Part shown: piece by piece, positions 822 through 64,000 of the stretch
Position numbering within the stretch: position 1 is the first letter of the stretch
Layout: each line of letters starts with the position of its first letter
Source: Polyangia bacterium
Lineage (GTDB): Bacteria; Myxococcota_A; Polyangia; Palsa-1104; JAEUJZ01
NCBI GenBank assembly: GCA_046351595.1
Contig: JAXLYE010000002.1
Location: 1,368,022 to 1,432,021, forward strand
Reading direction: 5' to 3'
Length of the DNA stretch: 64,000 nt
Notes under the pieces: model-generated
Databases searched by the model: none
Told to the model about the DNA's origin: nothing
Seen by the model: the letters and a program-made list of their open reading frames with translations, nothing else
Program-made: the position numbers and the translations under genes

Positions 822-895
822 GACTGCGTAGCTCAGCTGGATAGAGCAACTGTTTCCTAAACAGTAGGTCGCGCGTTCGAGTCGCGCCGCGGTCA
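822..895 (+). tRNA. tRNA-Arg (anticodon CCT)
   Basis: Manual cloverleaf fold. Acceptor stem GACTGCG/CGCGGTC has one G-U pair. D-arm is GCTC-AGCTGGATA-GAGC. Anticodon stem ACTGT/ACAGT has loop TTCCTAA, giving anticodon CCU. Variable loop is AGGTC. T-arm is GCGCG-TTCGAGT-CGCGC. Discriminator is A and CCA is not encoded. Confidence 0.8.
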
Positions 896-897
896 CC

Positions 898-10274: not shown

Positions 10275-10412
10275 CGGGCCGCCCGAGCGCCCGAGCGCCC
10301 GAGCGCCCGAGACGCAGGCGACCGCCGAAACTGCGGAAGCTGTTCCCGCGCGCCGGCTCGCTCTGGTAGCCTGAGTCCTAAGCTAAGCCAGGCATATCCA
10401 AGGTCGCCCACG

Positions 10413-12269
10413 ATGTCACAGGAGCAAAACGAGGCGGAGAAGCTCGTCGGCAAGGTGCTGGCCAACACCTACCGGCTGGAGCAGCTCCTGGTCTCGGGAG
10501 GGATGGGCGCCGTCTTCCGCGCCCGGCACATCCGCACCGGCGGCGTCTGCGCCATCAAAGTGCTGCACTCGCGCTCGGCCCAGAACGCCGACATCTTCGA
10601 GCGCTTCCAGGACGAGGCGCGCATCATCTCGGGCCTGCGCCACCCCAACATCGTGCAGGTCACGGACCTGGACCAGGACGCAAGCGGCCTGTCCTTCATC
10701 GTGATGGAGCTGCTCGAGGGCGAGGACCTGCAGGACCGCCTCGAGCGCGAGGGCAAGCAGCCGCTCAACAAGGCGCTGGAGATCACGCGGCAGATCGGCT
10801 CGGCGCTGCACGCCGCGCACTGCAAGGGCGTCATCCACCGCGACCTCAAGCCGCGCAACATCTTCCTCGCCCGCTACGAGGTCAACGGCGAGATGGTCGA
10901 GGTGGCCAAGGTCATCGACTTCGGCGTCTCGAAGATCCCGCGGCCCTCGGATCGGGCGACGCGCGATCTCCTGGTGCTGGGCACGCCGCGCTACATGGCG
11001 CCCGAGGGCGCGATGGGCCAGAACTCGCAGATCGACGGGCGCTCGGATCAGTGGTCGGTGGCGGTGATCCTGTACCGGCTGCTCTCGGGCCGGCTGCCCT
11101 TCGACCAGGAGAACGTGATCGACCTGTTCAAGCAGGTGATCAACGACGAGCCGACGCCGATCGAGCAGCTTTCGCCCGGGCTGCCGCGGCACATCGCCGA
11201 CGCCATCAAGCGGGCGATGCGCAAGAAGAAGGAAGACCGCTTCCCGACGATGCTGGACTTCCTCGAGGCGCTCGAGCCGCCGAACAAGCGCAAGCGCCGG
11301 CCGCAGTCGCAGAGCGCGATGCCGGCGGGCGCGGCGCGGCGCATGCTGCGGCGGAACCTCCTGTTCGCGGGCCTCGGCGCGGTCATGAGCCTGGCGGTGC
11401 TGATCCCGCTGTGGCGGCACCAGGCGAAGCTCAAGCGGACGAGCGGGCAGGGCTCGGAGCTGTTGTCGCAGGCCGATCTCGACCTGGCCGAGGAGCGCTG
11501 GGACGACGCGGCGATGCGCGCCGAGCGCGTGCTGAACATGCCCGGGCAGCCGCCGGCGATGCGCCAGGCCGCCGAGGTGACCAAGCGCCGCGCCGAGAGC
11601 GGGCGGCAGGCGCAGGGCGTCACCAAGAAGCTCATCGACGCGCTTCTGGCCAAGGACCTTGACACCGCGGTCGGCATCAACCGCGACATGCCGCCCAACA
11701 TCAGCGTGCGCGTGACCGCGCAGCAGCTCTACGACCTGCTCCTGCCGGCGATGGTCGGCGACCACCTGCAGAAGGCCGAGGCAGCGCGCGCGCTGGGCAA
11801 CTGCCCCGAGGTCCAGCGCCACGTCAACCAGGTGCTGCGCCTCTCGCCCGCGGACCTCGACGCGCTGCAGTCGCGCTGGCGGCCCTGCGTCTCGTACAAG
11901 GACGTCAAGGCACCGGGGCCGCGCCGCCTCGCCGGGTACCCGCCGGCGCGCGACGCGGACGGCACCTCGCTCGACCTGCCGGGCGACTACCTCGGCGGCC
12001 GCAGCACGCTGGCCGACGTCGATCGGCTGCTGCGCGAGGCGCAGATCGCGCACGAGGCCGGCCAGTACTGGCGCGCCGCGACGCTGGCCCACGCCGCCGT
12101 CGGCACGCCGCTGCGCGCCCCGACGGCCTGGCGCATCATCGGCATCTCCGCCTGCAACCTGCGCGACCGGGCGCTGCTCGCCATCGCCGGTGAGCACCTC
12201 GACGAGCTGTCGCGCGAGTTCGTCCGCGCCGGCTGCCAGACCGCGGGCTTCCCGGCGACCGGGCTGTGA
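10413..12269 (+). CDS. Ser/Thr protein kinase (Hanks-type) with C-terminal TM segment and extracytoplasmic region
   Basis: Gly-loop GGMGAVF, catalytic Lys in AIKVL, HRDLKPRNIFL, DFGVSK and APE motifs. A TM helix LLFAGLGAVMSLAVLIPLW follows the kinase domain. Confidence 0.85.
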   Translation: MSQEQNEAEKLVGKVLANTYRLEQLLVSGGMGAVFRARHIRTGGVCAIKVLHSRSAQNADIFERFQDEARIISGLRHPNIVQVTDLDQDASGLSFIVMELLEGEDLQDRLEREGKQPLNKALEITRQIGSALHAAHCKGVIHRDLKPRNIFLARYEVNGEMVEVAKVIDFGVSKIPRPSDRATRDLLVLGTPRYMAPEGAMGQNSQIDGRSDQWSVAVILYRLLSGRLPFDQENVIDLFKQVINDEPTPIEQLSPGLPRHIADAIKRAMRKKKEDRFPTMLDFLEALEPPNKRKRRPQSQSAMPAGAARRMLRRNLLFAGLGAVMSLAVLIPLWRHQAKLKRTSGQGSELLSQADLDLAEERWDDAAMRAERVLNMPGQPPAMRQAAEVTKRRAESGRQAQGVTKKLIDALLAKDLDTAVGINRDMPPNISVRVTAQQLYDLLLPAMVGDHLQKAEAARALGNCPEVQRHVNQVLRLSPADLDALQSRWRPCVSYKDVKAPGPRRLAGYPPARDADGTSLDLPGDYLGGRSTLADVDRLLREAQIAHEAGQYWRAATLAHAAVGTPLRAPTAWRIIGISACNLRDRALLAIAGEHLDELSREFVRAGCQTAGFPATGL

Positions 12270-12322: not shown

Positions 12323-14440
12323 TCAGCGCGAGATCAGCAGCACGCGCGGCCCCTGCGTATCGACCGGCGGCTCCTCGATGTCCAGCGTCGTCAAAAGGAC
12401 CGAGCCGATGGCCTCGGTGCGCGGGTCCTTGGCCTCGGGCGGCGGCGGCGCCGGCTCGCGGTGCTTGCCGTCCTTGGGGTGGCGCGGCGGCGGCTTGACC
12501 GGCGCCGGCTCGGGCGGCGGCGCCAGCTCGCGCAGCGCCTCGTCGCGCAGCTCCTCGGGGATCAGGCACGAGAACAGCTCGCCCGGGCGCAGCGCCTGCT
12601 TCAGCTCGCGCACCGAGCCGTACTCCTCGATCTTCTGACCCGAGTACAGCGACGGCACCTGCCGCGGCAGCGCGACGGTGCAGCGCCGGGCGCGCTGCGG
12701 CGCGTGGCGCAGCGACTGCGTCAGCGTCTTGATCGTGTCGTTCTTGTGCAGCACCGGCGCGCCCTCGACGGTCGCCACTACCACGCCGGCCAGCGCGCAG
12801 GCGGTGATGAGGCCGCCCAGGCCGCCGAGCCAGCGCACCGGCGACTGCAGCCCGACGGCCGCGCACAGCGCCAGCGGCGGCAGCACCAGCCCGAGCCCGC
12901 GCGGCGGCACGCTGCCGTCGCCCAGCGAGGTGATCGCGGTCGCCACCACGATCCACACCAGCAGCGGCCGCGACGCCCGCCGCAGCGACCCGAGCAGCAG
13001 GCCGAAGCCCGTCGTCACCACCACCACCTGACCGACGTGCCGGCCGAACCAGGTGTCGCCCTGGTGCCAGACCGCGAAGAAGGTCGCCTTGAGCGCCTCG
13101 AGCTGCGGCCAGTGCAGGTAGTTGCGTAGCGGCACCGGCTGCACGAACGTCGCCGCCGCGGTCAGCAACAGGCCGCCGAGCAGCATCATCCACACCCGCC
13201 GCTTGCGCAGCAGGTAGCGGTGCGAGATCGCCATGTCGACGAGCGCGAACATGATGGCGACGAAGCCGGCGCGCGGGTCGTAAAGGGCCGCGACACCGAT
13301 GCCCAGCGTCGCGAACAGCATCGGCAGCTTGCGCAGCGGCAGCGGCGCCGGCTCGTCGGCCTCGCGCTGGAAGGGCAGGATGTGGCGATCGAACTTGTGG
13401 CCGTGCAGGCTGTGGCTGACCAGCGCCACCGCCGCGGTCGCGGCAAAGGCGATCAGCATGTCCGGCAGCACGCGGTGCGACAGCTGGTAGGTCAGCGGCA
13501 TCGCCAGCAGCACCAGCCCGGCCAGTCCGCCGGCGTGGCGACCGACGCCGACGTCGATGGCGATGGCCAAAAGGCAGCTCGCGGCCCCGAGCGCGGCCAG
13601 CGCCGGCAGGAGGCGCAGCGTCCACTCGCTCGGCTCGAGCAGCCGCAGCAGCACCATGAACGACGCCAGCCCGAGCGGCGCGCCCGTCGGCGGCGGCACC
13701 AGGTGCGCGGCCTGCTCGAGGCGCAGCTCGCCGCTGGCCGTGGCCCGCAGCGCCAGCGCCACCTCGGCGTCGATGTTCCACAGGCTGCCGGCGCCGAGGT
13801 CGAGCAGGTACAGGATGATCGGCAAGAGCAGGGCCACGGCCCAGCCGAGCACCAGCCCGGTCGGCGCCTGCAGCGCCTCGACCACCTGCTGCGCGGCGCC
13901 GATCGGATCGCGCAGCGCGTCGACGGTGACGTTGGCGGCCTTGCCCAGCACCTCGGTGCCGCGCTCCAGGCCCTCCTCGATCTTCTCGGGGATCTTGCCC
14001 GGCAGCTCGGCGAGCTGCGCCAGGCGGCCCTTGCGGCGGAACCACGACCGCTTCCCCGAGCGCGGCGGTGCAGCCGGGGGCGGTGCCGCAGGCGCAGCCG
14101 GAGCATTGCCCGGGCTGGCCGAGCTGGCCGAACTGCCCGAGCGGGGAGGTGAGGCGGCGCTGGGCGCGGCGGCCGTCGGATCGGTTGCGGATCGCGGGCC
14201 GGGCCGGTCGCCAGGCGCGTCGCTGCGCGGCGGGTCGCTGCCCAGACCGGGACCCGGCCCAGGACCCGGACCGGGATCCGCGGGCCGCTTGTCGCTGCGC
14301 GGCGGGCTGTTTGCCGACGGGGCGACGCCGCTCGCCGGGACGCGGAAGGGCGCCAGCGCCGGCAGCCACGGGTTGCTGCTGGCTGGCACCGGCGGCTTGG
14401 GCGGGCGCTTCCCGCGCCCTGACCGCGGCGGCCGACTCAT
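12323..14440 (-). CDS. Polytopic membrane protein with Pro/Ser-rich disordered N-terminal tail; possible GT-C/PMT-like glycosyltransferase
   Basis: Real start inferred at ATG (complement of 14438-14440, MSRPPRSG...) inside the 985-aa track ORF. About 140 aa of PPRS/PGPG low-complexity sequence is followed by more than 10 hydrophobic helices. The opposite-strand ORFs here are Arg-rich shadows. Confidence 0.55.
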   Translation of the reverse strand: MSRPPRSGRGKRPPKPPVPASSNPWLPALAPFRVPASGVAPSANSPPRSDKRPADPGPGPGPGPGLGSDPPRSDAPGDRPGPRSATDPTAAAPSAASPPRSGSSASSASPGNAPAAPAAPPPAAPPRSGKRSWFRRKGRLAQLAELPGKIPEKIEEGLERGTEVLGKAANVTVDALRDPIGAAQQVVEALQAPTGLVLGWAVALLLPIILYLLDLGAGSLWNIDAEVALALRATASGELRLEQAAHLVPPPTGAPLGLASFMVLLRLLEPSEWTLRLLPALAALGAASCLLAIAIDVGVGRHAGGLAGLVLLAMPLTYQLSHRVLPDMLIAFAATAAVALVSHSLHGHKFDRHILPFQREADEPAPLPLRKLPMLFATLGIGVAALYDPRAGFVAIMFALVDMAISHRYLLRKRRVWMMLLGGLLLTAAATFVQPVPLRNYLHWPQLEALKATFFAVWHQGDTWFGRHVGQVVVVTTGFGLLLGSLRRASRPLLVWIVVATAITSLGDGSVPPRGLGLVLPPLALCAAVGLQSPVRWLGGLGGLITACALAGVVVATVEGAPVLHKNDTIKTLTQSLRHAPQRARRCTVALPRQVPSLYSGQKIEEYGSVRELKQALRPGELFSCLIPEELRDEALRELAPPPEPAPVKPPPRHPKDGKHREPAPPPPEAKDPRTEAIGSVLLTTLDIEEPPVDTQGPRVLLISR

Positions 14441-15059
14441 GCCGCTTGCACCCTGCCGAGCTGTCGCATCGCAACGACGGTAGATTGCGAGGGCCCCGGC
14501 TTCAAGCGGGAACACCCGCGGCCTGAGCCAGAGCGCGCCGATAGGCCCTGGTGGCCGGCGCCGCGACGCGCTGGAGGCGGGACCGCGGCCCCGCGCCGAT
14601 TCCGGCCCGGCGCGGGGCTTCGGCAGATTGAGCGCGCCGCTGCGGCTTCCTGCCGTCGTGGCACCGGCTGCGCCGACCCGGTCGCGGAGGAGATGGAGCA
14701 GCGGCCCGCGCAGCTCGTCCGGCCGCCCTTGCCCACGAAGCCCCGGCACTCGCTGCAAGATCCGCCAGCGGACCGCTGTCGCAGGTCGGTAAAAGTACGC
14801 CTCCGCCGTCGCGCCGTCGCTGCGAAGTCGCCTCGCGCGCGGACACCCCAGCGACGGCGGGCCGCGGTAATATGAGATCACCCCGGGTGTATGCAGGCTC
14901 ATGGGCCGTCGGGGTTGGGGCCAAGCACATGCAGGCGCAGTCGCCGCACAGCCACAACGGCTTGCCCACGAACGACGGTACGCACCGTCGGGCGCGCCCA
15001 CCGGTCTGCCCGCGCGGCCGGCGGGCGGTGGCGTGCGGCCGCAGCGTCGGGGGGCCGCG

Positions 15060-16223
15060 ATGAGCGCCTCGGCGCGCTCGCAGCTCGCCCTGGCCGTCGA
15101 CCTGCGCGACGCCAGCGTGCTCCTGGTCGACGACACGCCCGAGCAGTCCGAGGAGCTTTTGATCACGCTCACCGAGGCCGGCTTCAAGGTGATGACCGCC
15201 TCGAGCGGCCCGCAGGCCAAGCAGAAGCTGATGCAGGCCGGCGCCGATCTGGTGCTGCTCGATCTCAAGGGCGCGGACATGGACAGCTACGAGCTGTGCC
15301 GCCAGCTCAAGGCGCCGCCGCCGCTGCGCTCGGTGCCGGTGGTCTTCCTGTCCGCGCCGAGCGGCGACGACGTCGACGGGCGGGTACGCGCGTTCCGGGC
15401 CGGCGCCGCCGACTACCTGGCGCGCGAGGCCGACTTCGCCGAGCTGCTGGTGCGCCTGGAGCACCACATCCGCCTCGGCCGCAAGGTGCGCGAGCTGGAG
15501 CGCGAGCGCGTCGAGCTCTTGCGCGAGAACCGCGACCTGAAGAAGGAGAAGCAGACCGCGCCGCCGCCGATCCTGACCAACCTGGCCGACCTGCCGACGG
15601 GCTACCTGCTCGACGGCAAGTACCGGCTGGACACGCGCATCGGCGCGGGCGGCTTCGGCGTCGTCTACCGCGCCCTGCACCTGTCCCTGCAGCGCGCGGT
15701 GGCGGTGAAGCTGTTCCGGTCCATGGCCAACGGCTCCACCGACGACGCGCTGCGCCGCTTCCGGCACGAGGGCACCTCTGCCAGCCGCCTCAGCCACCCC
15801 AACGCCGTGACCATGCTCGACTCGGGCGTGGCGCCGGGCGGCATCCCGTACCTGGCGATGGAGCTCCTGGTCGGGCGCACGCTCGCCGAGGAGCTCAAGG
15901 ACAAGCAGCGCCTGGGCTTCGCCCGCTGCCTGCAGATCATCCTGCCGGTGTGCGACGTGCTCGTCGAGGCGCACGCCGCCGGCATCGTGCACCGCGACAT
16001 CAAACCCGAGAACGTGTTCCTGCACCGGACGCGCTCGGGCGAGGTGATCAAGGTGCTGGACTTCGGCATCGCCAAGCTCGTCGGCGAGGGCGAGGGCATC
16101 CCGGCGGTCACCGGCGCCGGCGGCTTCATCGGCACGCCGACCTACATGGCCCCCGAGCGCCTGCGCCAGGGCAGCTACGACGGCCGCTCGGACGTGTACT
16201 CGGTCGGCGTGGTTCTGTACCAG
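15060..16223 (+). pseudogene. 5' fragment of a response-regulator receiver-Ser/Thr kinase gene (receiver domain plus kinase subdomains I-IX), interrupted after ...DVYSVGVVLYQ
   Basis: ATG 15060. The receiver domain is VLLVDDTPEQSEELL...VLLDLKGADMDSYELCRQLK. The kinase region carries GAGGFGVVY, VAVKL, HRDIKPENVFL, DFGIAK and GTPTYMAPE. Beyond 16223 the frame runs into non-kinase low-complexity sequence up to a stop at 16403, antisense to the LmbE gene end. Confidence 0.75.
16206..16223 (+). repeat. 18-bp direct repeat GGCGTGGTTCTGTACCAG, left copy, at the upstream junction of the insertion
   Basis: Identical 18-mer found again at 18875-18892. It encodes G-V-V-L-Y-Q in frame in both kinase fragments. 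Confidence 0.9.
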
Positions 16224-16330
16224 GCTTTGCGCCGCGCCGGTGCCGTCGACGAGTCCGGCGGGCGGGGCGGCGGGGAAGCGGCGGGGAAGGGCGCGGTGCC
16301 GGCGGCCGGCACGTCTGCGCTCGGGCGCGC

Positions 16331-17200
16331 TCAGCCCAGCTCGGGGGCCGCGGGCGGCGCGCCGCCGAGTTCCTGCCCGAGATCCTGGAAGATCTCGGCG
16401 TAGTTCTGGAAGTGCCCGGGTCCGGTGCGCAGCGCGTAGAAGGACTCGGCGAGCTCGATGCCGGGCGCCAGGCGGGCCATGCCCTGGGCCATGCCCTGCA
16501 AGAACGCGCGCGCGCCGCCCTCGAGCTGGGCGCGCTGCTCCGCGGTCAGGCAGCGCGGGTCGGCGCCGGGCACGAACCAGTCCGCGAGCATCTCGATCTG
16601 CGAGGAGTGGCAGAGCAGCGACGCGACCTTCTTGTCGAAGGTCGGCCCGATGTCGATGACACGGTTGGGCCGCCTCTCGACGGGGCCCATGTACCAGACC
16701 TCGGTCGGCTGCGTCGCCTCGAGGTTCTCGCTGCCTTCGCGCAGGTGCTCCTCGTGCAAGAGCGGGAAGCACGAGAACACCGCGGCCTCGGAGGCCATGC
16801 GCCCGACCGCGATGTGATCGGGGTGGATCTCGTGCGTGCGGAACGGGTCGAAGGTGACGACGCGGTGGAGGCGCAGGCGGCGGAACCAGTAGACCAGGCG
16901 CTCGCGCAGCTCGAGCGCGTGCTCGCGCACACCGCCGTCGGGCAGGCCGAGCACGATCGGCGGCTCGGCGCCCAGGAGTGACAGCGCCGCCCCGAGCTCG
17001 CGCTCGCGCGTGGCGGCGAGGGCGGCGCGATCGACGCCGCGGTGGCGGGTGCCGAGGTCACCCCGGGTGGCGCAGATCGCGTAGACCTTGTGGCCGGCGG
17101 CGACCCACTTGGCCAGCGTGCCGGCCGCGAAGAACTCGCCGTCGTCGGGGTGGGCGTACACGAAGGCGATGTTCAGGGGCTCAGCGGGTGCTGACGGCAT
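16331..17200 (-). CDS. LmbE/PIG-L family N-acetylglucosaminyl deacetylase
   Basis: N-terminal NIAFVYAHPDDGEFFAAGTLAKW...ICATRGDLG is the PIG-L (LmbE-like) signature, with the HPDD metal-binding motif. Confidence 0.8.
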   Translation of the reverse strand: MPSAPAEPLNIAFVYAHPDDGEFFAAGTLAKWVAAGHKVYAICATRGDLGTRHRGVDRAALAATRERELGAALSLLGAEPPIVLGLPDGGVREHALELRERLVYWFRRLRLHRVVTFDPFRTHEIHPDHIAVGRMASEAAVFSCFPLLHEEHLREGSENLEATQPTEVWYMGPVERRPNRVIDIGPTFDKKVASLLCHSSQIEMLADWFVPGADPRCLTAEQRAQLEGGARAFLQGMAQGMARLAPGIELAESFYALRTGPGHFQNYAEIFQDLGQELGGAPPAAPELG

Positions 17201-18178: not shown

Positions 18179-18739
18179 CTACTTCTGGCGCAGCGTCCGC
18201 AGCGCGCCGCTCCAGGCGATGACCTGGTCGAGCAGCGTGTTCACGGACTTCTCGTGGTGCGCGCCGGGCTTGAAGACCGTGTAGTGCTCGAAGTCGCTGT
18301 GCAGCGACAGCGCGACCTGGGCGCGGACGTCCGCGACCTGCAGCTCGCCCATGATCAGGCGCAGCTGCTCGACGGCGCGCGTGCCGCCGGCGCTGCCGTA
18401 GCCGACGAAGCCGGCCGCCTTGTTGTTCCACTCGCGGTACAAAAAGTCGATCGCGTTCTTGAGCGCGCCCGAGGTCGAGTGGTTGTACTCGGGCGTGACG
18501 AAGACGTAGCCGTCGAACGAGCCGATCTTCTCGGCCCAGGCCTTGGTGTGCGGCTTGCTGTACTGGCCCATCGCCGGCGGCATCGGCTCGTCGAGCAGCG
18601 GCAGGTTGAAGTCCTGGATGTCGACGAGCTCGAACTCGGCGTCGCTGCGCTTCTGGGCGATGTCGTGGACCCAGCGGGCGACCGCCTCGGCCTTGCGACC
18701 CGGGCGCGTGCTTCCGATGATGATCGCGATCTTCAGCAT
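18179..18739 (-). CDS. NAD(P)H-dependent FMN reductase (flavodoxin-like fold)
   Basis: This is the real C-terminal 186 aa of the 1196-aa shadow track ORF: MLKIAIIIGSTRPGRKAEAVARWV...YVFVTPEYNHSTSGALKNAIDFL. The start may be off by ±1 nt because of my indexing. Confidence 0.8.
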   Translation of the reverse strand: MLKIAIIIGSTRPGRKAEAVARWVHDIAQKRSDAEFELVDIQDFNLPLLDEPMPPAMGQYSKPHTKAWAEKIGSFDGYVFVTPEYNHSTSGALKNAIDFLYREWNNKAAGFVGYGSAGGTRAVEQLRLIMGELQVADVRAQVALSLHSDFEHYTVFKPGAHHEKSVNTLLDQVIAWSGALRTLRQK

Positions 18740-18874
18740 GGCGATGACTCTCCTCAAAGACGGATGATCCCAGGTTACGCCGATTTCGTGCGGCCCGGGG
18801 AGGCGCTGCGCGCGGCCGGTGCCCGCGGCGACCGCAGCGACCCCGGGGAACGCCCGGCGCGACCTGTCGACGGC

Positions 18875-19540: not shown

Positions 19541-21175
19541 ATGTGGGGCTATAAGCCCTTGCGTCGCCTGGCCGATGGCCTGCGCACAGGGGCAGGCGCG
19601 ACGGAAACCCCTGTGGCCAAGGACCAAGAGAAGCTCTGCTTTGCCTGTCCTGCCAGCTACCCGGCGGCATACTCGTCGTGTCCCAAGTGTCAGCTGCCGC
19701 TGGTGTTCCCCTGCATCGGCAAGGTCTGGCGCGTCGAGGGGCTCATCGGCCGCGGCGGCATGGGCGCGGTCTTTTTGGCCCACCATGTCGACGATCCGCG
19801 CAAGCGCGCCGCGGTGAAGGTGCTGGCCACCATCGCCGGCGAGCAGCGCGCCGATCGCATGGACCGGATCGCCCGCTTCCAGCGCGAGGCCGAGGCGATG
19901 CGGCGCCTGACCCACCCCAACATCGTCCAGCTCTACGACTTCAGCCGCGAGCGCGACGGGTCGCTGTACCTGGCCATGGAGTACCTGCAGGGCCCGTCGC
20001 TGAGCAAGCTGCTCAAGGCGCGCCACTGCCTGCCCGGGGACGAGGCGGCGTCGCTGATCCTGCCGGTGCTGTCCGCCGTCGAGGCGGCGCACAAGGTCGG
20101 GGTCATCCACCGCGATCTCAAGCCGGACAACATCGTGCTGGCGACGGTGCAGGACGGCAAGCGCGAGGTGCAGCGGATCAAGGTCGTAGACTTCGGCGTG
20201 GCGCGGCTCAAGGACGACTCGCTGACCGACAGCGGCCAGGCGCTGGGCACGCCGGTGTACATGGCGCCCGAGCAGGCGCAGGGCGGCAGCGTCGACGAGC
20301 GCGTCGATGTCTACGGCGCCGGCGCGGTGCTCTACGAGCTCTTGACCGGGCACCCGCCGTTCACGCCGCCCGACGCGCCCAACGCCAACCTGGCGGTGCT
20401 GGCGCGCATCATGACCACGGACCCGACGCCGATCCGCGAGCGCTGCCCGGACATCTCGCCGGCGCTGGAGTCGGTGGTCCAGGGCGCGATGTGCCGCGAC
20501 CGCGAGAAGCGCTACCACAGCGTCGAGGAGTTTGCGGCGGCGCTGCAGGAGGCGGTGAAGCGGCCGGACGAGCGGCTGTGGACGCCGCCGGCCGAGATCA
20601 CGGCGCTGCCGCTGCCCTCGGCCGTGGCCGCCGCGGTGTCGCAGCCCAACCGCCTGCCGCGCAACTCCATCCCGCCGCACCTGCGCACGTCGATGGGGCC
20701 GCTGCGGCGCAGCATGGGGCCGGGGGCGAGCGTGCCGGCGTCGCCGCTGTTGGGCGGTCCGTCGGGCCCGGTGGCGATGTCGCGCGCGGCGGCGAGCGCA
20801 CCGGTGGCGCCGCTCTCGGTGAGCCGCTCGGGGGCGGCGATCCCGCCGCTCGGCACCGGGTCGCGCCCGCCGTCGGCACCCGGCTCGTTCAGCGCGCCGA
20901 GCCGGCCGCCGGTGGCGCGCTCGGCCCAGAGCTTCACGCCGGTGCCGCCGGGCGCCGCGTCCGAGGCCTCGCGCCCGTCGGTGGTGGCCTCCAAGTCCAG
21001 CAAGCCGCCGGCCTCGCGCGGCTACCGCCTGTTCATCGCCGGCCTGTACCTGGTGCTGGTGGGCGCCATCCTGCTCGTCCTGGCCATCACCAACTGCCGC
21101 GTGCGCGGCAAGCCGACCTCGCTGCTGCTGCCGGGCCCCGTCGCTGCGGACCGGATCTCTGCGGCGCTGGGCTGA
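19541..21175 (+). CDS. Ser/Thr protein kinase with N-terminal Cys4 zinc-ribbon and C-terminal Pro/Ser-rich region plus TM helix
   Basis: Zinc ribbon CFACP...[38 protein letters not shown] and MAPE motifs. C-terminal TM helix LFIAGLYLVLVGAILLVLAI. Confidence 0.8.
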   Translation: MWGYKPLRRLADGLRTGAGATETPVAKDQEKLCFACPASYPAAYSSCPKCQLPLVFPCIGKVWRVEGLIGRGGMGAVFLAHHVDDPRKRAAVKVLATIAGEQRADRMDRIARFQREAEAMRRLTHPNIVQLYDFSRERDGSLYLAMEYLQGPSLSKLLKARHCLPGDEAASLILPVLSAVEAAHKVGVIHRDLKPDNIVLATVQDGKREVQRIKVVDFGVARLKDDSLTDSGQALGTPVYMAPEQAQGGSVDERVDVYGAGAVLYELLTGHPPFTPPDAPNANLAVLARIMTTDPTPIRERCPDISPALESVVQGAMCRDREKRYHSVEEFAAALQEAVKRPDERLWTPPAEITALPLPSAVAAAVSQPNRLPRNSIPPHLRTSMGPLRRSMGPGASVPASPLLGGPSGPVAMSRAAASAPVAPLSVSRSGAAIPPLGTGSRPPSAPGSFSAPSRPPVARSAQSFTPVPPGAASEASRPSVVASKSSKPPASRGYRLFIAGLYLVLVGAILLVLAITNCRVRGKPTSLLLPGPVAADRISAALG

Positions 21176-21208: not shown

Positions 21209-22006
21209 GTGGACACGCCGCCGCACGATCTGCTGAGGCTCGCGACCTGCTTCGGCCTCGGCGCCGTCGCGGCCGGCATCAACGCCATCGCCGGCGGCGG
21301 CACGCTGCTGTCGTTCCCGGTGCTGGTGGCGCTCGGCTGGCCGGCGGTCATCGCCAACGCCACCAACGCCGCGTCGCTGTGGCCGGGCAGCCTCGGCAGC
21401 GCGCTCGGCTTCCGCGACGAGCGCTCGCGCGCCACCATCCGCGGCCACCTGCCGCTCTTGCTCGTGCCGACGTTCATCGGCTCGGCGCTGGGCGCGCTGC
21501 TCCTGACCGTGAGCGGCGAGCGCCTGTTCCGCCTGCTGGTCCCGGCGCTGGTGCTGCTGGCGACGGTGCTCTTGGCGCTGCAGCCGCGCATCCGCCGCCG
21601 CAGCCAGGCCCGCGCCGCCGCCGGGGCCGCGCCGCGCCGCCTGCCGACGTGGGCGGTCCTGTTGCTGCAGCTCTTCATCGGCGTCTACGGCGGCTACTTC
21701 GGCGCCGGCATGGGCATCCTGATGCTGGCGCTGCTCGGCCTGTACATCGAGGGCGACCTGCACGAGCACAACGCGCTCAAGGCCTGGCTCGGCGTCGCCG
21801 TCAATCTATTGGCAAGCGTGATATTCTTTTGGCAGGGCCTGATCGACCTGCCGGCGGGGGCGGCGATGGCGACGGGCGCAGTCCTGGGCGGCTACGCCGC
21901 GGCGCGGCTGTCGCTGCGGGTCAAGGCCGACGCGCTGCGGCTGGTGATCGTGGTGATCGGCGCGCTCTTGTCGCTGTGGTTCACGCTGCGGGCGCTGCGC
22001 GGCTGA
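21209..22006 (+). CDS. TauE/SafE (DUF81) family sulfite/anion exporter
   Basis: 265 aa, about 8 TM segments, and the two-repeat architecture with GGGxxxxP-like segments (INAIAGGGTLLSFPVL; VYGGYFGAGMGILML) typical of DUF81. Confidence 0.7.
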   Translation: MDTPPHDLLRLATCFGLGAVAAGINAIAGGGTLLSFPVLVALGWPAVIANATNAASLWPGSLGSALGFRDERSRATIRGHLPLLLVPTFIGSALGALLLTVSGERLFRLLVPALVLLATVLLALQPRIRRRSQARAAAGAAPRRLPTWAVLLLQLFIGVYGGYFGAGMGILMLALLGLYIEGDLHEHNALKAWLGVAVNLLASVIFFWQGLIDLPAGAAMATGAVLGGYAAARLSLRVKADALRLVIVVIGALLSLWFTLRALRG

Positions 22007-22042: not shown

Positions 22043-22540
22043 CTACTTCTGCTTGCGCTTGGCGATCCACTCGCGCGTGATCTCGGCGGCGCGGTCGTAG
22101 CCCTTGCGCATCTCGTCGACCATGTACTGCTCGATCTTGCCGCCGACGAGCATCACCGAGACCTTGATGTCACCGGCGAAGACGCGCTGGCAGCGGCCCG
22201 TCCCGATCGGCACCACGCTGAACACGCCGCCCATCTTGAAGCGGTTCTGCATCACCTCGGGCTCGATGCGCACGTCCATCTTCGAGGCGGCCTTGTCGTA
22301 GACGTCGTACTCGGTGTAGCCGGTGCTGGTGATCAGCGACTGCGCCCAGCTCGGCACCGGCATGTCGGGCTCGAGCTTCTGGGTGCGGATCAGCTTGTCG
22401 CCGGTGTCGCGCCGCTCCTTGACGGTGCGGCTGCGCATGCCGATGTGCTTGAACATCGCCTCTTCGAACTTCTCGTCGAAGAACAGCTCCCAGAAGCCCT
22501 GCGGATCGGTGTCGAAGTCGTGCGAGAAGCGGAAGTCCAT
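22043..22540 (-). CDS. Hypothetical protein, DUF2505/SRPBCC-like (165 aa)
   Basis: Real start MDFRFSHDFDTDPQGFWELFFDEKFEE... with an AAAGGAA RBS. The upstream part of the track ORF is a non-coding-like extension. Confidence 0.55.
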   Translation of the reverse strand: MDFRFSHDFDTDPQGFWELFFDEKFEEAMFKHIGMRSRTVKERRDTGDKLIRTQKLEPDMPVPSWAQSLITSTGYTEYDVYDKAASKMDVRIEPEVMQNRFKMGGVFSVVPIGTGRCQRVFAGDIKVSVMLVGGKIEQYMVDEMRKGYDRAAEITREWIAKRKQK

Positions 22541-22644
22541 GAGCGGTTCCTTTTGGCCGGACGCGACGAGCCCTCCCCGCTGCGCGCGCGGCGCAGGTCG
22601 GGGCGGGCCGAGGTCGGGTGTCGTAGACAGGGGCGGGGCGGGCC

Positions 22645-22926
22645 TCAGGCCGTGAACAGCTTCGCCAGCTCGTCCTTGATCTTCTTCTCGATGGTGTCCT
22701 TCATCGGGCTTAGCACGAAGGACAGGTCGAGGTTCACGCGAACTTGATTGGGCTCGATGTTGATCGTGCCGTTGGCGCCGGTCCGCTTGACCTCGGCCTG
22801 GGTGGCCGACTTCCACGTCGAGGACAGGCCGTACTTCTCGCTGAGCTCCTGGCTCAGGTTCTCGAGCCGCTTCTTGGCTTCCTCGGCGCTCACCTTGTGG
22901 CTCTGCGTGATCTCAAGCTTGGGCAT
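22645..22926 (-). CDS. Polyhydroxyalkanoate-granule-region family small protein (93 aa)
   Basis: MPKLEITQSHKVSAEEAKKRLENLSQELSEKYGL... with an AGGAGG RBS 8 nt upstream. It resembles the PHA_gran_rgn family. Confidence 0.55.
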   Translation of the reverse strand: MPKLEITQSHKVSAEEAKKRLENLSQELSEKYGLSSTWKSATQAEVKRTGANGTINIEPNQVRVNLDLSFVLSPMKDTIEKKIKDELAKLFTA

Positions 22927-23074
22927 GGGCCTCTTCCTCCTGTGACTCGCCTGTGACTCGGCTGTGATCGGGGCCATGGGCTGGCCGTTGGTTGGGGTCC
23001 GTCGGGGGACCGCTTGCAGTCGGGTCTTTGCCGCGTGCGCGGCCCGCCCCCTATCATGCTAGCCTCGGGCCGCG

Positions 23075-24211
23075 ATGACCATCTTTTCCCAGCCAGACCC
23101 GCGCCGCATCACCCGCTTCGCTTCCTCCGGCGGCTGAGCGGCCAAGGTGGGTCCGGGCGACCTGCACGAGCTCCTGCACGGCCTGGGCGCGGCCCGGGAC
23201 CGAGCGCGCGACCCCGCGGTGCTGGTCGGCACCGAGACCGGGGACGACGCGGGCGTGTTCCTGTTGCCGTCCGCCGCCGGGGCCGGCGCGGGGCCGCGCA
23301 GCGACGGGCTGGCGCTGGTGCAGACCGCGGACTTCATCACGCCGCCGTTCGACGATCCGTTCGCCTACGGGCAGATCGCCGCCGCCAACGCGCTCTCGGA
23401 CGTCTACGCCATGGGCGGCCGGCCGGTGACCGCGCTGAACCTGTGCGCCTTCCCGCGCGAGCTCCTGCCCGAGGTCGCGCACGAGATCCTCGAGGGCGCG
23501 GCGGCGGCGCTGGCGGCGGCCGGGGCGGCGCTGCTCGGCGGCCACACCGTGCGCGCGCCCGAGCTGTTCTTCGGCCTCGCTGTGACCGGGCTGGTCGACG
23601 CCTCGCGCATCTGGCGCAACATCGGGGTGCGTCCGGGGGACGTGCTCTTGCTCACCAAGCCGCTCGGCGCCGGCCTGCTCGTGACGGGCGCGCGCAAGGG
23701 CCTGATCTCCGAGGCCGAGCGCAGCGCCTGCGCCGTCGGCATGGCCGCCCTCAACCGCCGCGCCGCCGAGATCCTTGGGGATCCGGCGCTCGACCTTGGG
23801 GTCCACGCCGCGACCGATGTCACCGGCTTCGGGCTCGCCGGGCACGGGCTGGGCATGACCCAGGCCGCCGGCGGGGCCGACGCGGCCGGCGACGTGGCGC
23901 TGCGGCTGCACCTCGGCTGGCTGCCGCTGTACCCGGGCGCGCGCGCGCTGGCCGAGCGCGGCGTCACCTGCGGCGGCGCCCAAAGCAACCAGCGCGCCTA
24001 CCGCGAGCGCATCACCAGCGCGCGCCCGCTGACCGCCGCCGAGCAGGAGCTGCTGTTCGATCCGCAGACCTCGGGCGGGCTGCTCTGCGCGCTGCCGGCG
24101 GCGGCCGCGGAGCGCGCGCTCTTGGCCCTGCACGGAGCCGGCATCCCGGCCGCGCGCATCGGCGAGGTCGTGCCGCGCGCGGGCGGCGCCCCGCTCGTAG
24201 TCGTCGACTGA
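23075..24211 (+). CDS. selD: Selenide, water dikinase SelD (selenophosphate synthetase) with in-frame UGA (23135-23137) decoded as selenocysteine
   Basis: ATG 23075 follows the upstream TAG. Translation reads MTIFSQPDPRRITRFASSGG-U-AAKVGPGDLHELL, matching the SelD N-terminus (E. coli RLTQYSHGAGCGCKISP; Sec-containing orthologues have GAGUGCK). Downstream are the AIR-synthase-like PurM fold motifs GTETGDDAGV and LTKPLG. The track ORF (23147) starts just after the UGA. Confidence 0.8.
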
Positions 24212-24218
24212 GGTCCGC

Positions 24219-26264
24219 TCAGCGCGCGGGCGTGCGCAGCCGGCGCAGGTCGCCGACGCGCAGCGTGACCTTCTCGGCGTCGAAGTGCTCGGCCAGCGGG
24301 ATCGTGTACTTGCGGCTCTGGCCGACCAGGTCCTTAAACTGCGTCGGGCTGATCTCGCGGTGCGCGGTCAGGAACTGCACCAGGCGGGCGCGCAGCTCGT
24401 CGACGTGCGGCTTGTAGAACAGCAGGTCCTTGATGCGCACGAGCGCGCCGGTGCGGCACAGCCCATCGACGATGCCGCGTAGCGCGGCCGCGGCGGGCGC
24501 TCCCGACGCCTGCAGGAGCGGCGGCAGCTCGTCGAGGCGCGGCGGCGCCAGCCCGGCCGCGCGGAACACGGCGAGCACGCCCTCGCGCAGCGCCTGATCG
24601 CGGTCGACCGCGACGGCAGGCCCCGCCGCTGGGGATGACGCCGGGGCGCCGACCTCGGGCAGAAGGACCCGCTCGCGCTCGATCCGCACCAGCCCGCGCT
24701 CGGCCAGCCGCTCGAGCGCGGCCGAGGCCAGCCGCGGCGGGCACACGATCGCCGGGCCCTCACCGACGCCGACGCGATCGCCGCCGAGGCGCCCGAGCGC
24801 CGGCGGCAGCGCGGCCACGGCGAGCTCGCGCCGGTGCCGCGCGAGCGCCGCCAGCACCGCCTCCTCGACATGCCGCAGCACCGACGGGGCGTAGAGCGCG
24901 GGCGGGACCGAGACGAGCTCGCCGTCGCGCAGCAGCGCCTGCAGCGCCGCCTCGAGCTGCGCCGCCGGCACCGGCACCGCGAGCCGCAGTCCCGGCCCGG
25001 TCACGCCGCCGAGCCCGCGCCGCTCCGCCTCGGCCCGCACGAGCTCCGCGAGCGCGGTGGGCGCAGCCGCCAGCGCGTCCAGCGGGTGCAGCGCGTCCAG
25101 CGCGCCCGCGACCCGCCCGAGCGCCGCGAGCAGGCGCGGGCTGCCCCGCCGGTGTCGCCCGCCGAGGACCCGCAGGATGCGGCCGCCGCCGACGGTGGTG
25201 CCGTGGTTCTTCTGGGGCGCGAAGCCGCGCAGCACGAAGCGGTCGCCGGGCACCGCGCACAGCGGCTGATCGAGCTGGATCTGCGCCAGCGCCGTCTCAC
25301 CGGGCAGCGCCCGCTCGCGATCGAGCAGCGTCACCTGCGCCAGCCGCTGCGCCGTGCCCGCCGACAAAAGCAGCCGGCTGCGCCGCTCGAGCGGCGCCCG
25401 CGCCACCTCGAGGTAGCGCAGCTCGACGTCGAGCAGCACGCCGACCTGCTCGGCCGCGATCTCGTCCGGGCGCACCAGCGTCTCGCCGCGCTGAAGCGCC
25501 GCGAGCGGCACCGGCAGGTTGACGGCGGTGCGCTGGCCGGCCACGGCTTCGCTCACGGGCTGGCCGTGGACGTGCAGGCCGCGCACCTTGGCCGGCACCT
25601 GGTTCTTCTGCCCGGGCTGCGGCCACAGCTCGTCGCCGATACGCAGCCGCCCCGACCACAGCGTGCCCGTCGCCACCGTGCCGAACCCCTTGAGCGAGAA
25701 GACGCGATCGACCGGCAGCCTGACCAGGTTGGCGTCGGGGCGGCCGGGGCTGTCCCGCAGCGCTCGCTCGATGGCGCGGCAGAGCTCGGGCAGCCCCTCG
25801 CCGGTGCGCGCCGAGCAGGCGATGATCTCGGAGCCGCGCAGCGCGCTCGTCGCCAGCGTCGAGACGAGCTCCTCGCGCGCGAGCTCCAGCAGCTCGGGCG
25901 GCACGAGGTCGCTCTTGCTGAGCGCGACCACGCCGCGCCGCACCCCGAGCAGCTCGAGGATGTCCAGGTGCTCGCGCGTCTGCGGCATCACGCCCTCGTC
26001 CGCGGCGACGACCAGCAGCACCGCGTCGACGCCGACCGCGCCCGCGACCATGGTGCGGATGAAGCGCTCGTGCCCGGGCACGTCGACGACGCCGACGACA
26101 TCGCCGCCGGGCAGCGCGAGGTGCGCGAACCCGAGCTCGATGGTGATGCCGCGCTCCTTCTCTTCCTTGAGCCGATCGGTGTCGATGCCCGTCAGCGCCT
26201 TGACCAGGCTGGTCTTGCCGTGGTCGATGTGGCCGGCGGTCCCGAGGACGCGGTGCAGGCTCAT
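24219..26264 (-). CDS. selB: Selenocysteine-specific elongation factor SelB
   Basis: N-terminal GTPase GTAGHIDHGKTSL...DVPGHERF...SKSDL, about 680 aa, with C-terminal winged-helix extensions. Convergent with selD; their stops are 7 bp apart. Confidence 0.85.
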   Translation of the reverse strand: MSLHRVLGTAGHIDHGKTSLVKALTGIDTDRLKEEKERGITIELGFAHLALPGGDVVGVVDVPGHERFIRTMVAGAVGVDAVLLVVAADEGVMPQTREHLDILELLGVRRGVVALSKSDLVPPELLELAREELVSTLATSALRGSEIIACSARTGEGLPELCRAIERALRDSPGRPDANLVRLPVDRVFSLKGFGTVATGTLWSGRLRIGDELWPQPGQKNQVPAKVRGLHVHGQPVSEAVAGQRTAVNLPVPLAALQRGETLVRPDEIAAEQVGVLLDVELRYLEVARAPLERRSRLLLSAGTAQRLAQVTLLDRERALPGETALAQIQLDQPLCAVPGDRFVLRGFAPQKNHGTTVGGGRILRVLGGRHRRGSPRLLAALGRVAGALDALHPLDALAAAPTALAELVRAEAERRGLGGVTGPGLRLAVPVPAAQLEAALQALLRDGELVSVPPALYAPSVLRHVEEAVLAALARHRRELAVAALPPALGRLGGDRVGVGEGPAIVCPPRLASAALERLAERGLVRIERERVLLPEVGAPASSPAAGPAVAVDRDQALREGVLAVFRAAGLAPPRLDELPPLLQASGAPAAAALRGIVDGLCRTGALVRIKDLLFYKPHVDELRARLVQFLTAHREISPTQFKDLVGQSRKYTIPLAEHFDAEKVTLRVGDLRRLRTPAR

Positions 26265-26446: not shown

Positions 26447-27466
26447 TTGCCTTCTGCCATGCCGACGCCGACTCCATCGACAAACTCGCCCGGTCCCGCG
26501 CCTCCCGCGGGCGCGCCCAGCATGAGCGCGCTCGTCGAGTCGCTGCTCTCTGAGCTTGGCCAAAGCGTGCCCGAGGACACGATGCTGAAGTTCAACGAGA
26601 TCTGCTCGCGCCTGCTAAACGTCGCAAAGTTCGCCGACGAGGCGTCGCGCCGCTTCATCGACCCCGAGGTCGCCGCGGCCATCGACACCCTGCCCAACCG
26701 CGTCAACGACCAGGGCTTCGACACCTGGGGCTTCTGCCCCGAGGAGGCGAAGTTCTACTACTCGCTGGCGCGTCACATCCACGACTACTTCCGCCCCGAG
26801 ATCCACGGCATAAAGAACGTGCCCGCGGGCCGCGTGCTGATCGTGCCCAACCACGCCGGGCAGCTCCCCTTCGACGGCGTGGTGGTCGGCGTCTCGTGCC
26901 TGCTCAACGCCCACCGGCCGCGCCTGGTGCGCGCCATGGCCGAGCGCTGGGTCTCGACGCTGCCGTTCATCAACGAAATGTTCGCGCGCGCCGGCGTCGT
27001 GCTCGGCGATCCGATCAACTGCCGCAACCTGCTCGAGGACGATCAGGCGATCCTGGTGTTCCCCGAGGGTGCGCGCGGCAGCGGCAAGATCTTCCAGCGC
27101 CGCTACAAGCTCGAGCCGTTCGGCCGCGGCTTCATGCGCCTGGCGCTGCAGACGCACACGCCGATCGTGCCGGTCGCGGTGATCGGCTCGGAAGAGGCGG
27201 TGATCTCGGTGCACAACTGGAAGGGCCTGGCGAAGCTTATCAAGGCGCCGTACGCGCCGGTGAGCCCGCTGCTGCCGCTGCTCGGCCCGCTGGCGTACTT
27301 CCCGCTGCCGGTGAAGTTCCGCGTCTACTTCGGCGAGCCGATGCACTTCACCGGTCCCTTCGACGACGAGGACGCGAACATCCAGGCCAAGGTCGATCAG
27401 GTCCAGGAGCGCGTGCAGCAGATGATCAACGACGGCCTGAAGGCGCGCCGTTCAATCTTTTTTTAA
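26447..27466 (+). CDS. Lysophospholipid (1-acyl-sn-glycerol-3-phosphate) acyltransferase, PlsC family
   Basis: Acyltransferase motifs VPNHAGQLPFDG (H-x4-D variant) and FPEGARGSG. The start could alternatively be M at 26522. Confidence 0.7.
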   Translation: MPSAMPTPTPSTNSPGPAPPAGAPSMSALVESLLSELGQSVPEDTMLKFNEICSRLLNVAKFADEASRRFIDPEVAAAIDTLPNRVNDQGFDTWGFCPEEAKFYYSLARHIHDYFRPEIHGIKNVPAGRVLIVPNHAGQLPFDGVVVGVSCLLNAHRPRLVRAMAERWVSTLPFINEMFARAGVVLGDPINCRNLLEDDQAILVFPEGARGSGKIFQRRYKLEPFGRGFMRLALQTHTPIVPVAVIGSEEAVISVHNWKGLAKLIKAPYAPVSPLLPLLGPLAYFPLPVKFRVYFGEPMHFTGPFDDEDANIQAKVDQVQERVQQMINDGLKARRSIFF

Positions 27467-42511: not shown

Positions 42512-42712
42512 GGCGGTGCCTCCGGTCGCCCGCTCGCGCGCCGCGCTCGACCTGGAGGTTTCCCTAGTTTCCGACGAGAACGTCGGCGCCGCCGCGGCCC
42601 CATCCGGTGCTCCCTGGGGGGAATTGATAAACGCCGGAGGCTTCGGTTATGCTGCGCAGGGAGGGTCTCTCTGAGTCAGGTCGAGCCGCAATCACGGGAC
42701 GCCCGCACCGGG

Positions 42713-43696
42713 ATGATCATCGGCGGTTACCGCCTCATCAAGCTCCTGGGTGCCGGGGCCATGGGCCGCGTGTACCTGGCCGAGCACGAGCGGCTCGGTC
42801 GGCGCGCCGCGGTGAAGGTGCTCGACGGCTGGGATCCGGAGCTGGTGTCGCGCCTGTTCTGCGAGGCCCGCGCCGTCGCCCAGATCGGCGACGAGCACCT
42901 GGTCGACGTCTACGACTTCGTCGCCGATCCGCAGAAGGGCGTGGTCGCCTACATCATGGAGTACCTGCCGGGCGAGGACCTGCGCAAGGCGCTGCAGCGC
43001 GACAAGGTGCTGGCGCCGGCCCGCGTCGCCCGCATCGCCGCCCAGATCTGCGAGGGCCTGGCCGCCGCGCACAAGGTCGGCGTCGTCCACCGCGATCTCA
43101 AGCCCGACAACATCGTGCTCGTGCGCCGCGGCGGCGACAGCGACTTCGTCAAGCTGGTCGACTTCGGCATCGCGCAGTTCGCGGGCCCGGTCGCGCACCG
43201 CACCCGCGCCGGCATCGCGCTCGGCTCGGCCGCGTACATGGCGCCCGAGCAGGCCGAGGGCAAGCGTGTCGACGGGCGCGCCGACCTCTACGCCGTCGGC
43301 GTGGTCATGCACGAGCTGCTCACCGGCGAGGTGCCGTTCCTCGGCAAGACCTCGCGCGAGACGCTCGAGATCATGCACACCACGCGCGTGCCGACGGCGG
43401 CGGGCGATCACGGCGCCGGCCTGGTGACCGACGCCTTCGCCAAGCTGGTGCAGCGCTGCATGGCCAAGCGCCCCGAGGAGCGCCCGCAGAGCGCCGACGA
43501 GCTGCGCACCACCCTGCTCGAGATCGCCGAGGCCGGCTCGGATCGCGACGACCGCACGCAGATGATCGGCGCGCTGCCGCGCCGCAAGAAGCGCGGCTCG
43601 CCGGCGCGCAGCCTCAACCCGACCGCGGTGCTGGGCATGGCCTTCTCGTTCGCCATCGGCCTGGTCGCAGGGCTGGCGATTATGGGATGGCGCTAG
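42713..43696 (+). CDS. Ser/Thr protein kinase with C-terminal TM anchor
   Basis: [33 protein letters not shown] and YMAPEQ motifs. C-terminal TM helix [21 protein letters not shown]. Confidence 0.8.
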
Positions 43697-51668: not shown

Positions 51669-52013
51669 CACGAGCGAGAGCCGGCTCTGGCTCGGCCCTA
51701 CGCTGGCCAAGGAGAGCGCGGGGACGGCAGCGGGCTGTATGGCAGTCTCCGGCAAGACGCCTTCTAAGTACCACAGTCGGGCACTCTGCGGGCGACCGAG
51801 CCGGAGCGCGCCGCGCCGGCCCGCCGCTTTCTGGTGTCCTATTGCGCGGGTACCGGACCGTGCCGGGGCCGCGGCCACGCGCGGGTCGTGCGCGTGCGGG
51901 CCCGGGCCGTGCCGCTGGCGCGCGCCGCATCGGCCACACTGCGGGCCTCGGCCGCACGTCCCGCTGCGGCGGCTCTCGCTTTGCGCAGGACTGGCGATAT
52001 AGACTGCACCGCC

Positions 52014-52379
52014 ATGTATTCCGGTAAGACCCAGGGCGGGCTTTCCGCCGAAGAGATCCGCACGACCGCGGAGATGGCGCGCCTGCAGCTCGACGAGAGC
52101 GAGCTCGCGCAGCTGGCCGGCGAGCTGTCCGGCATCCTCGCGCACGCGGAGCTGCTGAAGGAGATCGACGTCTCGGCCGTGCCGTCGACTAAGCACGCGG
52201 TGCCGATGAGCTGCCCGCTGCGCGGCGACCTGGTCGGGCCGCACGATCCGATCGAGGCGGTGCTGCGCAACGCGCCGGCGCGCGAGGCCACGTTCTTCTC
52301 GGTGCCAGCGGTGTTCGCGAGCACCGGCGCGGCGACGGGCGCGGCGATGGGCGCGAGCGACGACTACGAGGAAGGGTAG
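52014..52379 (+). CDS. gatC: Asp-tRNA(Asn)/Glu-tRNA(Gln) amidotransferase subunit C
   Basis: LSAEEIRTTAEMARLQLDESELAQLAGELSGILAHAELLKEIDV is the GatC signature. It lies immediately upstream of gatA. Confidence 0.8.
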   Translation: MYSGKTQGGLSAEEIRTTAEMARLQLDESELAQLAGELSGILAHAELLKEIDVSAVPSTKHAVPMSCPLRGDLVGPHDPIEAVLRNAPAREATFFSVPAVFASTGAATGAAMGASDDYEEG

Positions 52380-52383
52380 GGCG

Positions 52384-54013: not shown

Positions 54014-54021
<8 letters not shown>
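52384..54021 (+). CDS. gatA: Glutamyl-tRNA(Gln) amidotransferase subunit A (amidase signature family)
   Basis: VPVALKDNLCTAGLPTTAGSKIL..., GGSSGGAAAAVAA...GSDTGGSIRQPAA is the amidase Ser-cisSer-Lys signature. 545 aa, with a short insert (APPGPDGNDDRDGGRP) near the C-terminus. Confidence 0.9.
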
Positions 54022-61517: not shown

Positions 61518-62135
61518 CCAATCGAGTTATCGAGTTCCTATAGATCGAAGCCGCTCTTGCCCTGGACCTGCTCTGCACTCGACGAAGCCGCGCGAAGCTC
61601 CCAGCCTGCTGGCCAGCTCCACGGACGCGCTTTCGCCGCTGCAGAGGCCGACGCCGCAGACCGAACCGGCGGCGGTCGCAGGATCCGGGAAGCCCTCCGG
61701 GCGGGCGGCTTGCGAATGAGGGAACCCGCCCGAGCAGCCCGCGTGGACCGCTGCCACACGGCCGCCGACCCGGACGCCGCGACCGCCGCGGTCGCCGAGC
61801 CGGGAGCTCACGCCTCCGTTTCCAAGGGCGCGCGCGCACCGGGCGCCGCCGCGTCCCGCCGAGTTGTCGGCGACACCACAGATCGGGGCCGAACAAGAAC
61901 AAGGCCCGCGCCCGAACGGATCACCCCGGGGCCCGCAGCGCGTCGCGCCGACGCGCTGGTCGGGAGGCCCCCTTGCACACCCGCCGAGCTGCGTCGTTGC
62001 GCTGAGCACGACGCGCCCGGGCTGCCGGATCCGGTCCGCCTCACGGCGACCGCGAAGGGGGGCTCCCCCACATCCGGACAGCGGGCCCGCGCTCCGCTTG
62101 CGCGCCGCACCGCCGGTGGGTCACAGAGAGGTTTT

Positions 62136-64000
<1,865 letters not shown>

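Follow-up and report, generated by a model that had tools for sequence, protein, structure and literature searches.

A probable selenocysteine-encoding selD with a putative SECIS hairpin beside selB in an uncultured Polyangia bacterium

No bacterial selenoproteins are more widespread than SelD and FdhA, and it has been suggested that the Sec trait, that is, the capacity to decode selenocysteine (Sec), may be kept for the sake of SelD, a protein that contributes to its own synthesis (PMC1794560). Among prokaryotic selenoprotein families SelD ranks second in distribution, and discussion of its dependence on itself goes back to 2006 or earlier (PMC1794560, PMC4561486, PMC13188914). In one set of reference genomes 19% of SelD genes encode Sec, "always in the same position", and selenoprotein genes are usually mis-annotated (PMC4561486). 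The bacteria for which SelD is recorded as part of the selenoproteome include Anaeromyxobacter dehalogenans (PMC1794560). Here we describe a selD gene (selenide, water dikinase) in a stretch of 64,000 nucleotides (nt), hereafter the window, that spans positions 1,368,022 to 1,432,021 of contig JAXLYE010000002.1 from a Polyangia bacterium and has a GC content of 72.7%. We are highly confident that positions 23075-24211 of its forward strand hold a complete selD whose codon 21, a UGA, is decoded as Sec. A Sec-type SelD with its selenocysteine insertion sequence (SECIS) and an adjoining selB is a standard, well-documented arrangement that is already known.

The described proteins closest to this one are the Sec-type SelD of Aquifex aeolicus (Sec13; PDB 2yye and 2zod, as Sec13Cys), of Haemophilus influenzae and of the myxobacterium Anaeromyxobacter dehalogenans. 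They belong to the same TIGR00476 family, carry Sec at the same position of the N-terminal loop, and have the SECIS within the coding sequence straight after the UGA, as is the case here. The local motif of A. aeolicus SelD, SSG-U-AAKVGPGDL, is nearly identical to the SSGG-[TGA]-AAKVGPGDL of the present gene. There is no difference in kind between these systems and this one; the copy described here comes from an uncultured Polyangia metagenome-assembled genome (MAG) and was deposited in truncated form. The Cys-type SelD of Escherichia coli (3u0o) has the same fold, domains and catalytic loop, and its Lys20 is kept here as K24. It differs in having Cys17 where this gene has UGA/Sec, and Cys-type genes are without a conserved hairpin after that codon.

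The ATG at 23075 is the sole possible start of the long form of selD because a stop codon lies in frame four codons 5' of it with no start codon in between. Translation from this ATG reads MTIFSQPDPRRITRFASSGG up to the TGA at 23135-23137 and AAKVGPGDLHELL beyond it, and the frame then remains open until the TGA at 24209-24211, giving 378 codons in all. The body of the gene contains no frameshift and no extra stop. When Cys is put at the TGA, the 378-residue protein scores 320.7 bits against TIGR00476 (cut-off 125), and this match pairs residues 11-343 with positions 1-309 of the 311 in the profile, so that it starts upstream of the TGA. The N- and C-terminal AIR-synthase-related domains are recognized by Pfam (AIRS, PF00586, 84 bits; AIRS_C, PF02769, 50.8 bits). 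Membership of this family predicts that the product makes selenophosphate from selenide in an ATP-dependent reaction.

The structures 3u0o and 2yye align with the query from its residues 10 and 14, respectively. In these alignments residue 21, the UGA, faces Cys17 of the E. coli protein and K24 faces its Lys20; in 2yye ("SSGCAAKVGPGDL") residue 21 likewise faces the Cys that replaces Sec13 of the A. aeolicus protein. As judged from these comparisons, the UGA sits exactly at the catalytic Cys/Sec position of SelD, within its glycine-rich N-terminal loop (SSGG-U-AAK). The initial annotation of this DNA, which had proposed a selenoprotein gene with Sec in the catalytic loop, is thus borne out by the family score, by the alignment of the 23075-24211 translation to SelD families and by the conservation of the TGA in relatives. 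It had also drawn attention to an autocatalytic dependency of SelD on Sec. That property is long known for Sec-type SelD (PMC1794560, PMC4561486).

Conservation was assessed at two depths. Close relatives were obtained through 10 exact-protein look-ups, and the DNA of seven relatives with truncated entries gave, together with the window, a set of eight distinct Sec-type sequences that share 65-90% protein identity downstream of the UGA. For the wider sample, 90 distinct selD sequences (72 Sec-type and 18 Cys-type) were collected across phyla; a single-protein metagenome scan yielded nine distant loci. The best SelD matches in the genome collection, among those listed, have 45-54% identity. Both the TGA at codon 21 and the upstream peptide M(T/N)xFS(Q/R)PDPRRITRFASSGG are present in all eight close sequences. 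Eight of the ten codons preceding the TGA vary within this set, and every change is synonymous, which is the signature expected of a translated region under purifying selection. In the wider sample the Sec position is occupied by TGA in 72 of the 90 sequences and by TGC or TGT in the other 18, so that only Cys or TGA is found there. To judge from these alignments, the conservation of the TGA together with its coding flanks is far beyond chance.

The Cys-type homologues show the same peptide without interruption. Full-length entries of this type (P0007, P0010, P0014, P0025 and P0028) read (I/V/L)TRFA(A/G/S)SGGCAAK(V/I)G across the position, and P0007 shares the N-terminal start MNKFSQPDP. In three Cys-type relatives with matching synteny around selD (L103, L104 and L107) the codon is TGC, and their upstream peptide is contiguous with the rest of SelD. 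The MTIFSQ...SSGG segment, which had been read ahead of the TGA from this one sequence, is accordingly conserved by the close relatives and encoded with TGC by the Cys-type ones.

The published gene model is different. Both the listed open reading frame (ORF) and the NCBI annotation begin at a GTG at 23147, 9 nt past the TGA, and the 354-residue record MFO0574892.1 ("MAG: selenide, water dikinase SelD [Polyangia bacterium]"), which belongs to a contig of 1,625,101 bp, is identical to the listed ORF. Taken at face value, this model has the TGA closing a meaningless short upstream ORF and an N-terminally shortened SelD being made from the GTG, which is indeed a possible start codon. Such a protein would be without 24 N-terminal residues, the catalytic Sec among them, and would lack both the Sec/Cys and the Lys of the N-terminal loop that align to C17 and K20 of E. 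coli SelD. The model also runs against the 20 upstream codons, which are conserved at the protein level with mostly synonymous changes in all close relatives and continue directly into SelD in Cys-type ones. SelD entries that begin with MGPGDL or VGPGDL are numerous in the protein search and full-length entries are the minority; these short starts are the same gene-calling artefact and lend the GTG start no support. We therefore regard the annotated start as very improbable. MFO0574892.1 is a truncation in which the Sec codon has been treated as a stop.

A hairpin with the properties of a bacterial SECIS can form at 23147-23165 of the forward strand. Its 5' arm (23147-23153, GUGGGUC) and 3' arm (23159-23165, GACCUGC) form seven base pairs, two of them G-U, and enclose the five-nucleotide loop CGGGC (23154-23158). 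The stem begins about 10 nt after the UGA and the loop 16 nt after it, and for the window sequence the segment nt 10-36 folds at -9.0 kcal/mol. The model for bacterial SECIS elements (bSECISearch, Zhang and Gladyshev, via PMC13188914) allows a loop of 3-9 nt, a stem of 4-16 bp, a G within the first two loop positions, a UGA-loop spacing of 16-37 nt and a minimum free energy of at most -7.5 kcal/mol. The hairpin falls within all of these limits: its five-nucleotide loop has a G at position 2 followed by another G, its stem has 7 bp, and its spacing lies at the lower limit. It departs from the SECIS of the E. coli fdhF type, which has a U in the loop and a bulged U in the stem; the loop here is without U and the stem without a bulged U.

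Variation within the Sec-type clade supports this assignment. The codons AAG GTG GGT CCG GGC GAC CTG CAC, which include the rare GGT (4% of the Gly codons in the window), do not vary at all among the close Sec-type sequences (0 of 8), as compared with 12 of 14 flanking codons (Fisher p = 1.4e-4). Two further loci do change here and keep the pairing. In the more distant Polyangia locus L001 GTG becomes GTA and CTG becomes CTA, turning a G-U and a U-G pair into A-U and U-A, and in L003 GTG becomes GTA and converts one G-U pair into A-U. Several of the pairs are broken in the Cys-type relatives L103, L104 and L107. Where the Sec-type hairpin would lie, two of these three, L103 and L107, retain the rare GGT with CCC as the next codon, and this may be a remnant of an earlier SECIS after a Sec-to-Cys change.

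The wider sample permits a test for covariation, which used a codon-aligned, ungapped alignment with 500 shuffles and with slid registers as a control. Across the 72 Sec-type genes 73.4% of cells are paired, there are 40 double-sided changes, and the covariation score is 0.243; none of these values was reached by any of the 500 shuffles, and slid registers of the same alignment pair at no more than 50%. The same columns in the 18 Cys-type genes are 50% paired, which is not above either shuffles or slid registers. Mean fold energy of nt 10-36 is -9.4 kcal/mol for Sec-type and -5.8 kcal/mol for Cys-type genes (Mann-Whitney p = 4.7e-6), with the lower GC content being on the Sec-type side. The comparison of these 72 and 18 genes places the predicted selD SECIS in the codons for K-(V/I/L)-G-P-x-D/x-L. 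A hairpin about 10 nt after the UGA had been anticipated in the initial annotation, and its location, fold and covariation agree with that proposal. The bulged drawing given there does not fare as well: a bulged lower stem has 64.6% of its cells paired (32-54% in its lower three pairs) against 73.4% for an unbroken stem that includes two G-U pairs, and the unbroken form is favoured.

The neighbouring gene on the reverse strand (24219-26264) encodes SelB, the selenocysteine-specific elongation factor, in 681 residues (NCBI MFO0574893.1). It scores 307.7 bits against TIGR00475 (cut-off 242.25), its closest PDB matches are the SelB structures 4zu9 and 5lzb, and Pfam finds GTP_EFTU, GTP_EFTU_D2, Beta-barrel_SelB (PF25461) and, at residues 631-676, the SelB winged helix (PF09107, 59.3 bits). 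The EF-Tu-like GTPase core, the SelB beta-barrel and the C-terminal winged helix are shared with SelB of E. coli (5lzb) and A. aeolicus (4zu9). Compared with the 614 and 582 residues of those proteins, the SelB here is longer, owing to a middle region that is rich in Ala and Pro and differs from one relative to another. Identity to the SelB of one relative (L100) is 71% over the full length, with near-identity in the G domain and over the final 60 residues, at the C-terminal SECIS-binding end. On these comparisons selB is intact and conserved. The convergent arrangement noted at the outset is confirmed by the coordinates and by the TIGR00475 match, with a gap of 7 bp between the selD stop (24209-24211) and the selB stop codon on the reverse strand (24219-24221); relatives show an 11-nt overlap of selD and selB.

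Several results weigh against the interpretation of codon 21 as Sec and of the hairpin as its SECIS. In the single sequence the hairpin does not fold better than dinucleotide shuffles (z = +0.87 for 23135-23200 and +2.06 for 23120-23180); single-sequence folding does recover the 7-bp hairpin, which does not stand out from the background. Among synonymous recodings of K-V-G-P-G-D-L-H-E drawn with the codon usage of the window, 25% fold equally well. No Rfam family matches, either at the gathering threshold in the window or at E values up to 10 in 23060-23260. A shuffle test on a single sequence is powerless in a genome of 73% GC, and the SECIS call rests on the comparative data because the hairpin is not significant on its own. 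Those data support a putative SECIS that is conserved and specific to Sec-type genes. The remaining objections concern the partners of selD and selB: the 64-kb window contains no tRNA-Sec that ARAGORN or Rfam could detect, and no SelA was found in it by Pfam searches of ORFs supported by GC3 (the GC content of third codon positions) or by six-frame tblastn with a SelA protein. The initial annotation had likewise seen neither selA nor selC in this DNA.

Both searches recover their targets elsewhere. ARAGORN detects tRNA-Sec in related loci, and SelA from locus L039 detects SelA in 14 other loci by tblastn. Of the 55 loci that were scanned, only 9 have a tRNA-Sec no more than 10 kb from selD; selC is usually not near selD, and its absence from the window thus says little. 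One ARAGORN call invites comparison with a tRNA-Sec, a 90-nt "tRNA-Ala (cgc)" at 63671-63760 on the reverse strand. We rejected it as a mis-called tRNA-Sec since it has no Rfam support, has an anticodon other than UCA, and falls within a DEAD-box helicase ORF (61720-63999); it is probably a false positive.

The absence of selA and tRNA-Sec from the window could also mean that selD was recently inactivated, with selA, selC or both lost from the genome and the UGA now terminating translation. Loss of the Sec trait and Sec-to-Cys conversion are frequent in bacteria (PMC1794560), which lends this scenario some general plausibility. It is nonetheless hard to reconcile with the adjoining selB, which is full length and retains a near-identical SECIS-binding C-terminus, with a selD body free of frameshifts or additional stops, and with a SECIS and an upstream frame that are undamaged and exactly as in relatives. 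The missing tRNA says little, given the usual distance of selC from selD, and we consider recent inactivation as improbable as the annotated start. A genome's SelB is held to be diagnostic of the Sec-decoding trait (PMC1273633), and for this reason a complete Sec pathway is the likely state of the organism. In line with the established bacterial Sec pathway, selA and selC would then be located elsewhere in the genome.

With UGA read as Sec, expression of selD would follow the route known from other bacteria. The mRNA would fold into the hairpin with a 7-bp stem and 5-nt loop at 23147-23165, starting 10 nt after the UGA. The C-terminal winged helix of SelB, the product of the convergent neighbour, would bind this SECIS, and SelB would bring Sec-tRNA(Sec) to the ribosome with the UGA in its A site. 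Both the binding of SelB to the hairpin and the incorporation of selenium at 23135-23137 are proposed here by analogy with that pathway.

A reading of the UGA without Sec machinery, whether by near-cognate read-through that inserts Trp or Cys or under a reassigned code, is extremely unlikely, because TGA is an ordinary stop in the window (it ends a kinase gene at 21175 and selD itself at 24211), the codon at 23135 is the single sense-strand in-frame TGA with coding-like flanks in 64 kb, no residue but Cys alternates with TGA there in homologues, and the locus has a SelB of its own as well as a hairpin specific to Sec-type genes. The scan behind this count found six TGA codons in the window with coding-like flanks on both sides (GC3 of at least 0.85). 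Just one of these, 23135, has the sense orientation of a gene, and the other five were rejected as selenoprotein codons since they lie in antisense frames of known genes. Same-frame ORF junctions in the window are ordinary gene boundaries, and there is no further selenoprotein gene candidate within the 64 kb; the suggestion that other genes with an in-frame UGA may have been mis-called elsewhere in the genome has no counterpart inside the window.

The region ahead of selD has features of its own. A sigma-70-like promoter match at 23028-23057 on the forward strand consists of TTGCCG, an 18-nt spacer and TATCAT; no other promoter-like site occurs in 22900-24400, where shuffles give an expectation of 0.0, and its function is predicted from this resemblance. 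The stretch from its -10 hexamer to the ATG, TATCAT(GT)GCTAGCCTCGG(C/G)C (within window positions 23028-23077), is nearly invariant in Sec-type and Cys-type relatives alike, down to about 58% protein identity. This hexamer and the leader of about 20 nt are far more conserved than the surrounding intergenic DNA. Such a pattern may reflect a promoter, a leader or a regulator binding site.

Gene order around selD is also maintained. A TauE/SafE-family permease (21209-22006, forward strand), a DUF2505 gene (22043-22546, reverse), a PHA_gran_rgn gene (22645-22977, reverse), selD, selB and an acyltransferase gene (26447-27466, forward) follow one another in the same order in relatives (loci L092-L101, L103, L104 and L107 were examined). 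The order DUF2505-PHA_gran_rgn-selD is kept in Cys-type relatives too, one of which (L107) has no selB downstream. The conserved gene order and the near-invariant TATCAT..GCTAGCCTCGG leader in both Sec- and Cys-type relatives raise the idea that this Polyangia lineage keeps a dedicated selenium module, an undescribed unit for uptake or regulation whose Sec trait would be maintained largely for making SelD itself. We found no paper linking TauE with selD in the literature searched, and we consider such a module unlikely.

Other parts of the window are unrelated to selenium but deserve a brief record. A short gene at 18179-18760 on the reverse strand (MLKIAIIIGSTRPGRK...) lies in a stretch where no frame met the GC3 threshold; it has a weak match to NADPH-dependent FMN reductases and may be foreign or fast-evolving. 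Three long GC3-supported ORFs have few or no recognizable domains. The largest (44889-53000, reverse, 2,703 residues) has a TPR match as its only one in Pfam, and those at 12323-15286 (reverse, 987 residues) and 868-3279 (forward, 803 residues) have no Pfam match. The true start of the 44889-53000 ORF must be further downstream, because the ORF as listed overlaps the start of an amidase-family ORF at 52210-54021 (presumably gatA; a GatB ORF follows). Four Ser/Thr protein kinase genes occur in the 64 kb (10275-12269, 14871-16403, 19541-21175 and 42512-43696), and in one of them the kinase is joined to a receiver domain of the response-regulator type. Myxobacteria typically have many Ser/Thr kinases, and their presence here would fit the Polyangia assignment.

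Nothing in this locus is new in principle, and the comparison between Sec-type and Cys-type selD genes provides a clean illustration of where the SECIS is placed. The practical value of the finding is limited to annotation: the SelD entry should be extended to 23075-24211, and 23135-23137 should carry a transl_except for Sec. With this gene the uncultured Polyangia bacterium is also a probable user of selenocysteine, and for that reason the rest of its genome is worth screening for mis-called selenoproteins.

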